Source: a virus (Duplodnaviria > Heunggongvirae > Uroviricota > Caudoviricetes). From it: 64,000 bases of DNA. The stretch's first letter is position 1, and each line of letters begins with the position of its first letter. Positions 38,900 to 39,693 of the stretch are shown piece after piece. The DNA lies in IMG/VR virus record IMGVR_UViG_2565956614_000003; one strand, given 5' to 3'. The position numbers and the translations under genes were made by a program. The notes beneath the pieces were generated by a model that saw nothing but the letters and a program-made list of their open reading frames with translations, was not told the origin of the DNA and ran no database searches.

Positions 38900-39693
38900 G
38901 CTTAGCCGCATTCACCGCAACGGAAAGAGCATTCTTGGTGGACCTGTAGATTGGGATATGAACCCGTTACAGGAGAATGCTCTTACCTGTTACGTGCTCC
39001 GTTTCGTGGAGCTAACGGCGGGTGATCAGACCGCACCAGACTGGACTTATTTCAGCGTTATGCTCATGCCAGAGAATCAAACTGTGATGGTCGGTGCTGA
39101 ACTCCGACACAGGGTTGTAGCAAGCCCCGCAAAGCGCGCACTACTGTAGTTGCGGCACATCAGCCTGTGCATTCACCACAATGTTGAGAACACTGGTTGT
39201 CACGCTGCAACGCAACATTTATTCGTAGATTGGGATATGACCCCGTTACGCCAGTGTTCTCAACGTTATAGTGCCGGTTACGGTTCCGGCCAGGCCTCTT
39301 CCTCAACGGGGTGTTCTCCATACGGACTACCGTTTATTGGTCGTTCCTGCGGTTTATGTTGTGAAGCCAGATGCTTATCTTCTGGTTGCTTCAAAGAGCT
39401 GCACTTCATCACAACGGTAAGAGCACTCGATGCATTTAAGCCAAGCCCCATAAGGGAGAATGCCCTTACCTGTTGTGTTGTGATGACCGGTGCTGATCTC
39501 CGGCTTGCGGTTATTTCAGACTCTCACGGGCGTTTAATTGCCCCGCCGAACAGCTCTTTTCCGCAATAGCTGCAATGTCTTTCGCGCATCAGCCTGCGCA
39601 TTCATCACAACGGTAAGGGTACTTCGTAGGGATTCGAACCCTCTGCCAAGCACGGCGATCTCCGACGTCGCAAAATACCCTTACCTGTTGTGT
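38900..39693 (-). repeat. array of four long imperfect hairpins, one tRNA-like
   Basis: Four units each with a 13-17 bp outer stem (e.g. CACAACGGTAAGGGTA / TACCCTTACCTGTTGTG); units 1-2 share core GTAGATTGGGATATGAMCCCGTTAC; unit 4 carries a GGTTCGAATCC T-loop. Confidence 0.45.

Follow-up and report, generated by a model that had tools for sequence, protein, structure and literature searches.

The question raised by this locus is what a phage encodes in roughly 800 nucleotides (nt) that follow a tRNA-Thr gene and contain four long hairpins. The interval occupies positions 38,900–39,693, minus strand, of a 64,000-nt stretch of Caudoviricetes DNA (IMG/VR record IMGVR_UViG_2565956614_000003), called here the window. 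A preliminary description, made from the letters alone, had proposed that the transcribed minus strand of the interval specifies structured, non-coding RNA and that the two plus-strand open reading frames (ORFs) running through it are spurious. Folding, covariation and the absence of a coding signature all bore this out, and no minus-strand ORF of 60 or more residues lies wholly inside the interval, as had been stated. The RNA found here is strand-specific, covarying, modular and non-coding; it is co-oriented with tRNAs and genes, and lies in untranslated leaders, where one functional RNA unit borders on another. On balance, the interval is probably an array of four composite, non-coding RNA modules in the ban operon leader, transcribed from the minus strand together with tRNA-Asn and tRNA-Thr.

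Long hairpins and a covarying domain

All four of the long hairpins described earlier (U1–U4) were recovered by folding of the minus strand, and a fifth (U5) was added. The outer stems stood as such, but not their length of 13–17 bp: the closing stems of U1–U4 are 17–23 bp long, with bulges. These four hairpins fold with −36 to −47 kcal/mol (z scores of −4.5 to −6.0), and none of 200 shuffled sequences folded as well. When U1–U4 were refolded as the plus strand, the structures were weaker by 4–12 kcal/mol in every case, and the whole 921-nt stretch gave a z score of −7.8 on the minus strand compared to −2.6 on the plus strand, which is the signature of G–U pairs in a minus-strand RNA. The five hairpins are real, and each is more stable as minus-strand RNA.

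Closest to the tRNA genes is U4 (39600–39697, arms 39692–39671 and 39626–39606; z −5.7). Its interior is a partial tRNA-like element, with a 7-bp acceptor-like stem that includes two G–U pairs, a AGGGUUCGAAUCCCU T-arm at 39642–39628, and no anticodon arm; the T-arm and stem were thus correctly seen before, except that the stem had been given as 8 bp. U3 (39404–39488, arms 39477–39456 and 39428–39410; z −6.0), a hairpin that is present in 56 viral contigs, holds UGCUCUUAC, a sequence resembling boxA, in its 3' arm. U2 (39170–39277, arms 39272–39251 and 39196–39175; −47.3 kcal/mol, z −5.75) contains a 25-nt core, GUAACGGGGUCAUAUCCCAAUCUAC, at 39249–39225, and U1 (38908–39003, arms 38993–38974 and 38935–38917; z −4.5) contains the core at 38970–38946, with UGCUCUUUCC in its 3' arm. 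The two cores (38946–38970 and 39225–39249) had been reported to be shared, and are 96% identical. Their GGG-N7-CCC hairpin also holds up, but its likeness to a T-arm is only partial: the loop (UUCAUAU) lacks the conserved A58. U5 (40043–40135, arms 40130–40111, CACAACAGGUAAGGGCGCUG, and 40069–40050, CAGCGUCCUUUCCUGUUGCG; −44.8 kcal/mol, z −5.7) lies upstream of tRNA-Asn. A further copy of the arm sequence, previously placed near 40105, is real, and is found at 40115–40130 in the 5' arm of U5.

The dominant conserved element had escaped the preliminary description, and is found between the hairpins. These apparent “spacers” are four copies of a conserved, structured RNA domain, consisting of a closing helix, P1 (UGGUG/CACCA plus an extension), an AAU linker, a hairpin, P2 (GCGCA-GGCUGA-UGCGC), a variable insert of ≈15–200 nt, and a second hairpin, P4 (GCCGG-AGAUCAGCA-CCGGC), which directly abuts the 3' strand of helix P1. 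The loops of P2 (GCUGA) and P4 (UCAGC) are complementary, and are predicted to pair through 5–6 Watson–Crick base pairs. The connectivity of the helices resembles that of tRNA, with helix P1 in the place of the acceptor stem, P2 in that of the D-arm, the insert in that of the anticodon arm and P4 in that of the T-arm.

The domain was aligned in 30 diverse sequences, in which 95% of the cells were paired and eight pairs changed on both sides. The covariation score was 0.179, compared to 0.093 for shuffled alignments, none of 500 of which reached the observed value; in slid controls, 22–50% of the cells paired. Covariation was found in the extension of helix P1 (GUUG/CAAC, GAUGA/UC and similar), in the P4 stem (CCGG/CCGG, CUGG/CCAG, CCUG/CAGG and GCAGG/CCUGC) and in the loop–loop contact: in a scan that left the P2 loop free, ACUGA occurred with UCAGU in four of five distinct combinations, and GCUGA mostly with UCAGC. 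Among the P1-like phages, the frequent stem variants (4–51 loci) preserve the pairing via G–U pairs on the minus strand, while the variants that break a pair are all rare (1–4 loci).

A covariance model (R1) made from the 30-sequence alignment and run with the filters off across all 64 kb identified exactly four copies of the domain, none of them outside this interval or on the plus strand. Each copy is located directly 3' of one long hairpin (U4–B, U3–D, U2–A and U1–C). The array therefore comprises four tandem bipartite modules plus the solitary hairpin U5, behind which R1 found no copy. Domain B (39473–39617; 79.7 bits, E 1e-18) has helix P1 at 39611–39603 and 39485–39477, P2 (GCGCAGGCUGAUGCGC) at 39599–39584, P4 at 39504–39486, and a 79-nt variable insert. 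Domain A (39077–39188; 75 bits, E 2e-17) has helix P1 at 39182–39174 and 39089–39081, P2 (GCACAGGCUGAUGUGC) at 39170–39155 and P4 (GUCGGAGUUCAGCACCGAC) at 39108–39090, and differs from domain B by compensatory changes in the stems. Domain C (38793–38927; 25.4 bits, E 1e-4; folding z −3.5) is a variant resembling the small RNA (sRNA) STnc100, in which helix P1 (GUUGCGGUG/CACCGCAGC) pairs 38921–38913 with 38805–38797, and P4 (CUGGGAGGCACCCGG, 38820–38806) is followed by a U-run. Domain D (39354–39421; 19.9 bits, E 0.004) is a minimal copy, with helix P1 (GUUGUGA/UCACAAC) and a P4-like hairpin (CCAGAAGAUAAGCAUCUGG, 39385–39367), and no clear P2. When domains A, B and C were folded singly by free energy, without R1, helix P1, P2 and P4 were recovered. 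The 83-nt linker from domain D to U2 (39274–39356, CCGCAGGAACGACCAAUAAACGGUAGUCCGUAUGGAGAA...) also occurs behind a domain copy in an unrelated viral contig (L138); because of this recurrence, the linkers may themselves be conserved functional parts, such as sRNA seed regions.

The bipartite arrangement is not confined to the window. In other phages (≈100 distinct upstream contexts), most domains are preceded by a 14–21 bp stem that terminates exactly at the GUUG/UGGUG junction. The arms of these long hairpins are often unrelated between phages (CAACUGUAACGACGCU/AGCGUCGUUACAGUUG, ACACAUGAGAGCG/CGCUCUCAUGUG and CAAUCAAAGAGCG/CGCUCUUUUUGAUUG), and the position of the hairpin is kept despite completely different arm sequences. 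(A hairpin-closure statistic did not discriminate between real and shuffled contexts, at 91/102 and 82/102, and was discarded; the listed structures alone were used.) The GUUG that closes each 3' arm has two possible partners: one CAAC at the foot of the hairpin to which it belongs, and another at the end of the next domain. Adjacent helices therefore compete for 4–9 nt.

The plus-strand ORFs that run through the array, at 38820–39149 (109 codons) and 39150–39569 (139 codons), are annotated as the genes upl and plp in phage P1 and in RCS47, and the JL22 record likewise annotates Upl and Plp at this site. The DNA of phage P1 (NC_005856) is the same: its trnT-to-tciA interval is 98% identical to that of the window, and the plus-strand ORFs are the annotated genes. 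Two premises of the preliminary description were therefore wrong. The interval does not replace the tci genes of phage P1, since the same array lies between trnT and the following gene in each of P1, P7, D6, SJ46 and RCS47; and upl is not the minus-strand ORF at 38529–38765, but the plus-strand ORF at 38820–39149.

We found no sign of coding in these ORFs. Among 92 distinct substitutions in the P1-like loci, the three codon positions accounted for 8/14/13 in the upl ORF and 15/14/18 in the plp ORF, and the synonymous fraction was 0.28–0.29, compared to 0.23–0.24 expected at random. Two of the variants create stop codons in plp, and there are several 1-nt indels as well as a 13-nt deletion that takes out the upl start codon of phage P1. 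A homology search for conserved coding sequence yielded no Pfam family for either ORF, and tblastn found full-length Plp in five records (RCS47-type); the matches elsewhere were fragments corresponding to single RNA modules. Because of a cassette indel, the C-terminal part of Plp differs between phage P1 and RCS47, and in phage P1, plp overlaps trnT. Alignment of seven P1-like phages showed unit-sized indels, with breakpoints in the arms or in the shared core, that alter the ORFs from phage to phage. No gene is annotated at this site in the P7 and D6 records, and RefSeq-annotated P1-like plasmids of E. coli list tRNA-Thr only, and no gene, under 39400–39700, the 3' part of plp. This pattern indicates that upl and plp are probably not protein-coding, but annotation artefacts lying over a minus-strand structured RNA.

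Relatives and distribution of the domain

No Rfam 15 family covers the hairpins or domains A, B and D (region scan at E values up to 10), and a scan of 14 related loci at gathering scores returned nothing for the main domain or the hairpins. Matches to microRNA, plastid and transfer-messenger RNA (tmRNA) families were chance matches to hairpins or T-arms. Integron attC sites, repetitive extragenic palindromes (REPs) or miniature inverted-repeat transposable elements (MITEs), retrons, type III antitoxin arrays, and hammerhead or other ribozymes were rejected on inspection of the sequence, which showed neither a matching core motif nor an integrase, reverse transcriptase or toxin gene associated with the array. 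The motif strings were not found in the searchable literature, and the literature on upl/plp of phage P1, the ban operon and the HK639 antiterminator RNAs yielded nothing usable.

A relationship did emerge with STnc100 (RF02076). The Rfam model scores domain C at 32.7 bits (positions 31–147 of 206), below its gathering score of 47, and has no match to domains A, B and D at E values up to 10. In the reverse direction, R1 had a single match in 7 kb of phage 933W, namely the STnc100 gene (16.9 bits, E 0.0025), which Rfam scores at 207.7 bits and which lies between stx2B and downstream late genes, with tRNAs upstream. STnc100 and the domain share a skeleton: a (ca)UGGUG/CACCA(ug) closing helix, then an AAU linker, a hairpin on the 5' side, a variable middle part and, abutting the 3' strand of the closing helix, a terminal hairpin. 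Like the array, STnc100 and PasD are encoded in phage operons, in stretches of untranslated leader or between genes, with tRNAs and genes for toxins and holins nearby. A 2026 preprint reports a structural relationship between STnc100 and PasD, and places these and other Pas sRNAs in the leaders of late operons, close to genes for Q, TerB-like proteins, esterases and holins (bioRxiv 10.64898/2026.05.13.724894). The function of STnc100 has not been established (PMC12370729). The modules of phage P1 are followed by the TerB-like tciA, consistent with the same neighbourhood logic. The differences are that the P2 and P4 sequences are not the same, that the complementary GCUGA/UCAGC loops are not evident in STnc100, and that the present subfamily is far more widespread, reaching the beta and alpha Proteobacteria, is usually located behind a long hairpin, and here forms a four-fold array. 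We regard the element as belonging with the prophage RNAs STnc100 and PasD, of which it is a much larger variant with a defined structure.

The piece between U4 and U3, about 137 nt of domain B, recurs at 97–98% identity in the early-left (PL) leaders of lambdoid phages (mEp460, Stx2a_1447 and others). There it is unannotated, is flanked by the repressor gene on one side and the opening gene of the PL operon on the other, and has the orientation of the PL transcript. The same piece adjoins tRNA genes in a Klebsiella siphovirus. A search of IMG/VR with the most conserved 24 nt of the domain gave at least 120 contigs, in ≈100 sequence clusters among the matches listed. The exact 23-nt core is present in 104 species-representative genomes of the gamma, beta and alpha Proteobacteria, including many Enterobacterales, Pseudomonas, Halomonadaceae, Burkholderiales, Xanthomonadales, Neisseriales and some Alphaproteobacteria, along with a few metagenome-assembled genomes assigned outside the Proteobacteria. 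In E. coli, 1243 of 5426 complete genomes (≈23%) match a 301-bp query containing domain B.

The genomic contexts were counted as unique contexts (98 domains, 99 upstream and 113 downstream). A tRNA gene lies within 600 nt of 25 of the 98 domains, in all 25 cases on the same strand. The first downstream feature was an intrinsic terminator in 36 of 113 contexts, an ORF start preceded by a Shine–Dalgarno sequence in 21, and a tRNA in 11, six of which are only 8–14 nt from the domain. Clustering of the downstream genes gave 130 singletons out of 195 and no single associated protein family; those that recur are holins of lysis cassettes (late leaders), N-like proteins and a CPS-53/SfV-type early gene.

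Processing, antitermination and other readings

We favor, with moderate confidence, the reading that the modules serve as processing and stabilizing punctuation in a long transcript and are excised from it as stable small RNAs. Each module would be a self-contained folding unit. The long hairpin, with its closing stem of 17–23 bp, bulged A and variable tip (in unit 4, a partial tRNA-like minihelix), would present a duplex that is cut as an RNase III-type substrate, and the tRNA-shaped domain would be cut by RNase P or RNase E at the domain/tRNA borders. Such cutting would leave nuclease-resistant small RNAs and provide adjacent tRNAs and mRNAs with ends that are structured and protected. The products would be RNAs of the STnc100/PasD kind, with variable inserts and 3' tails free to pair with targets in trans. 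The repeated, conserved arms double as points of homologous recombination at which cassettes are shuffled among phages.

Several points weigh against this reading. Processing by RNase III, P or E is something we infer from the shape and position of the modules. The R1 scores of domains C and D are weak (25.4 and 19.9 bits), and the seed pattern used to collect sequences for the alignment fixes most of P2, so that variation in P2 is under-sampled. The terminators that follow 36 of 113 domains sit 20–160 nt downstream, which fits an element acting on RNA polymerase at least equally well, and the copies in contigs L144, L169 and L170 start within ≈8 nt of a −10 box, which would also suit an action on RNA polymerase. 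Finally, the identity of the 23-nt core across three proteobacterial classes exceeds what base pairing or a passive stabilizer would need. This identity implies a conserved host partner, and points to specific recognition by a conserved host machine that the punctuation reading does not name.

A bolder proposal, to which we give less credence and which is offered tentatively, follows from the core. The UGGUGAAU...CACCA domain could represent an unrecognized, pan-proteobacterial class of phage RNA, a tRNA-shaped three-way junction locked by a Watson–Crick loop–loop contact, whose near-invariant core docks a conserved host machine, for example RNA polymerase with Nus factors, RNase P or another tRNA-handling enzyme. 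If so, the domain, usually behind a long duplex, would open early, late and tRNA operons and control elongation or processing of long untranslated transcripts, and STnc100 and PasD would be diverged offshoots that were detected as sRNAs. The helices, covariation and predicted tertiary contact are now defined for a very abundant class of phage and prophage RNA, previously known as scattered sRNA matches (STnc100, PasD) in pathogenic E. coli, and the phantom genes upl and plp would drop out of the reference annotation of phage P1 in favor of defined RNA elements. The class is found at control points of phage expression, including the early-left leader, the N leader, the late leader near Shiga toxin and lysis genes, and tRNA operons. 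Its function would bear on the timing of temperate-phage expression, on the processing of tRNA/sRNA arrays and on the exchange of regulatory cassettes.

Among the alternatives, the one that survives best, although we consider it rather unlikely, is that the modules are nut- or put-like elements for processive antitermination. They would modify RNA polymerase to pass terminators, resist Rho throughout the long untranslated stretch of leader and tRNAs, and reach ban. The nascent RNA would act alone or together with Nus factors, for which the boxA-like UGCUCUUU/ACC of the long hairpin's 3' arm would be the recruiting site. The settings are suggestive: copies occur in PL leaders (mEp460, Stx2a_1447), in late leaders before holins and in untranslated tRNA operons, and the leader of P1-like phages is a ≈1.7 kb untranslated RNA with a terminator after the ban promoter. 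In the window, this strong intrinsic terminator (GCCCAUCUUCGGGUGGGCG followed by U7; 40319–40338, minus strand) is located ≈190 nt downstream of the C1-controlled ban promoter/operator. Both tRNAs, the array and ban all lie past it, and read-through or an unseen internal promoter is therefore needed. A consensus scan of 37500–40700 (3.2 kb, both strands) found no sigma-70-like promoters, the mean for shuffled sequence being 3.3, and the “Pupl” promoters predicted in phage P1 are located within tciA, a gene absent from the window. However, the modules of the window are downstream, not upstream, of this terminator, contrary to what antitermination would lead one to expect.

The comparison with known antitermination sites is similarly divided. 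A lambdoid nut site was defined as a boxA (CGCUCUUUA-like) with a boxB hairpin no more than ≈10 nt behind it, the loop of boxB being a GNRA-like pentaloop. A boxA-like GCUCUU(U/A) is found at −13/−14 of the domain in 29 of 99 upstream contexts, including U3 and U1, even where the arms are otherwise unrelated (CGCUCUUUUUGAUUG); 0.009 would be expected per context, although the counts are not independent, because hairpin arms are homologous. Many other 3' arms are merely pyrimidine-rich and contain no boxA. Lambdoid nut sites, like the domain, occur downstream of early promoters and upstream of N-like genes, and the 5' half of the domain resembles P22 nutL (CGCUCUUUAAC-UUCGAUGA-UGCGCUGACAAAGCGCGAA against UGCUCUUACC-GUUGUGAUGAA-UGCGCAGGCUGAUGCGCGAA), a likeness that is local only. 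The P2 loop, however, is a GGCUGA hexaloop paired with the distant P4, not a GNRA-like pentaloop. At least six different arginine-rich, N-like proteins start 29–35 nt after the domain in other phages, but these phages have a separate, canonical boxA (UGCUCUUUAACAA in contig L084) or P22-type boxB upstream of it. The domain is therefore not their nut site, but sits between nutL and N. This is the place of the RNase III processing hairpin in the lambda N leader, and counts in favor of processing. No N-like gene was seen adjoining the array in the window, which was not searched for an N analogue. In P22 itself, the leader between the nutL boxB and gene 24 (N) (2690–2800, minus strand) could form a long closing helix (UUUGGACUGGCG/CGCCAGUACCAAAG), against whose 3' strand a terminal hairpin would be set; this fold, which R1 does not score, resembles the domain skeleton and may be a distant relative.

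HK022 put offers a second comparison, as a folded RNA of ≈70–150 nt with two hairpins that, like the domain, opens early transcripts. HK022 putL directly abuts its promoter (PMC9378689), as do some copies of the domain, including the three that begin next to a −10 box. Conservation of the core across classes would also suit RNA polymerase or Nus factors as a target. On the other hand, there is no sequence similarity to put (blastn-short gave chance matches of 10–11 nt only), and R1 found no match in the immunity region of HK022 or in P22. The domain, moreover, is a closed three-way junction with kissing loops. Nor does mEp460 carry an L/R pair: its whole genome contains a single copy, which lies in the early-left leader and is not matched on the early-right side.

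That the array consists of decayed tRNA genes, the remnants of a formerly larger tRNA cluster, or of tRNA mimics or decoys for processing or modifying enzymes or for tRNA-targeting defence nucleases, appears improbable. The preliminary description had raised the possibility of tRNA pseudogenes or mimics, and part of its basis persists. In unit 4, an acceptor-like stem is joined by a perfect T-arm, and the T-loop motif GTTCRANYC occurs inside 10 related hairpins, almost always beside the 3' arm as in U4, where fewer than one would be expected by chance, as estimated from the motif probability. The domain itself has tRNA-like connectivity, and additional genuine tRNAs occur here in related phages: Ro157c2YLVW carries a tRNA-Tyr between tRNA-Asn and tRNA-Thr, and in both P7 and D6, ARAGORN identified a tRNA-Ser(UGA) (1638–1724, minus strand of the locus) that lies within the array region, directly after a domain copy. 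In contig L137 (3938–4060), the insert of the domain holds a nested tRNA fragment with a D-arm (GUAGCUCAGUUGGUAGAGC) and a T-arm (GCGGGUUCAAGUCCCGC), and no anticodon arm.

However, no tRNA was called for any unit, either by ARAGORN on the whole window or by the Rfam tRNA model on 4 kb at E values up to 10 and on the 106 nt of unit 4; scanned singly, this unit gave a weak mascRNA-like match of 14.2 bits. Units 1–3 have no tRNA features beyond the GGG-N7-CCC hairpin without A58. Decay would not yield structures that are conserved and covarying in distant phages without a nearby tRNA, and 73 of the 98 domains have none within 600 nt; the covariation and the retained hairpin position suggest purifying selection on the non-tRNA parts. 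Phages and bacteria also have tRNA-like stable RNAs, such as the C4 RNA precursor of P1/P7, the species 1 and 2 RNAs of T4, and the Y-RNA-like YrlA. Like the array, these are small structured RNAs beside tRNA genes or with tRNA-like processing. In the domain, by contrast, the D-loop/T-loop contact is replaced by Watson–Crick pairing of the loops, and the CCA-like CACCA is base-paired rather than free; no element of the array had an Rfam match to C4, YrlA or tRNA.

Slightly less probable still is that the inverted repeats act at the level of DNA, as MITE-like cassette boundaries or recombination hot spots, with the RNA fold being incidental. The presence or absence of units among P1, P7, D6, SJ46, RCS47 and the window has breakpoints inside the arms or the shared core, and the 137-bp segment is 97–98% identical across P1-like phages, lambdoid phages and the Klebsiella siphovirus, which are otherwise unrelated here. 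Recombination at the repeated arms clearly happens. It is an expected by-product of any repeated sequence, however, and looks like a consequence of the repetition rather than the function of the arms. No transposase, target-site duplication or terminal signature was seen, the orientation strictly follows transcription, and both the G–U-tolerant, strand-specific covariation and the covarying loop contact are features of RNA. Lastly, that upl and plp are real plus-strand protein genes and the hairpins coincidental is very improbable, as their annotation in three records and their length are outweighed by the flat codon positions, the disruptive variants, the narrow occurrence of full-length Plp, and the lack of a promoter-like site on either strand.

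Operon setting and additional observations

The window comes from a P1-like phage (Punavirus), and the closest record is RCS47, at 98.9% identity. On the minus strand, the gene order is dmt (40519–42783), the C1-controlled ban promoter region, the leader, tRNA-Asn, tRNA-Thr and the interval. On the 3' side, the interval is followed by an ORF for a 78-residue membrane protein (38765–38529), a 275-residue lipoprotein (38548–37721), tRNA-Ile(CAU), which ARAGORN identifies as tRNA-Met, and ban. The two ORFs (37721–38765) replace tciA, tciB and tciC of phage P1, and the same replacement is found in RCS47 and Ro157c2YLVW. The lipoprotein has an SPFH/Band-7 domain (Pfam E 1e-30), and is labeled as a “putative serine protease” in RCS47. 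The leader terminator at 40338–40319 closes a region annotated as “dicF-like” in phage P1 (40300–40400), but the Rfam DicF model found no match in 37000–41000 at E values up to 10.

The tRNA-Asn (39772–39846) and tRNA-Thr (39694–39769) genes, which were identified both by ARAGORN and by the Rfam tRNA model, are bona fide (73.9 and 74.9 bits), and lie on the same strand as the array, immediately 5' of it. Compared to the allele of phage P1, tRNA-Asn lacks one base and differs at several positions of the D-arm, T-arm and anticodon stem; the allele that it does match is that of Ro157c2YLVW. The tRNA-Ser(UGA) is unannotated in P7 and annotated on the wrong strand in D6; in related contigs it is 9 nt from the domain copy.

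In contig L160, an abiF RNA motif (1269–1305; 55.2 bits, above the Rfam threshold) begins at the last base of a domain copy (1159–1270). In mEp460 (2840–2990, minus strand), the domain is followed by an intrinsic terminator (GCGGUACCAG...CUGGUACCGC and a U-run), and then by a further long hairpin with arms ACAAAACAGAGAAGAGCA/UGUUCUUCUCUGUUUUGU and a tip (GGGCUCAUAACCCAAUC) that resembles the U1/U2 core. Elsewhere in mEp460 (5480–5668), isrK (67 bits) is found beside a C4 antisense RNA (83.6 bits), within the region annotated as the Rha antirepressor gene; this lambdoid phage thus carries an immunity RNA of the P1/P7 type.

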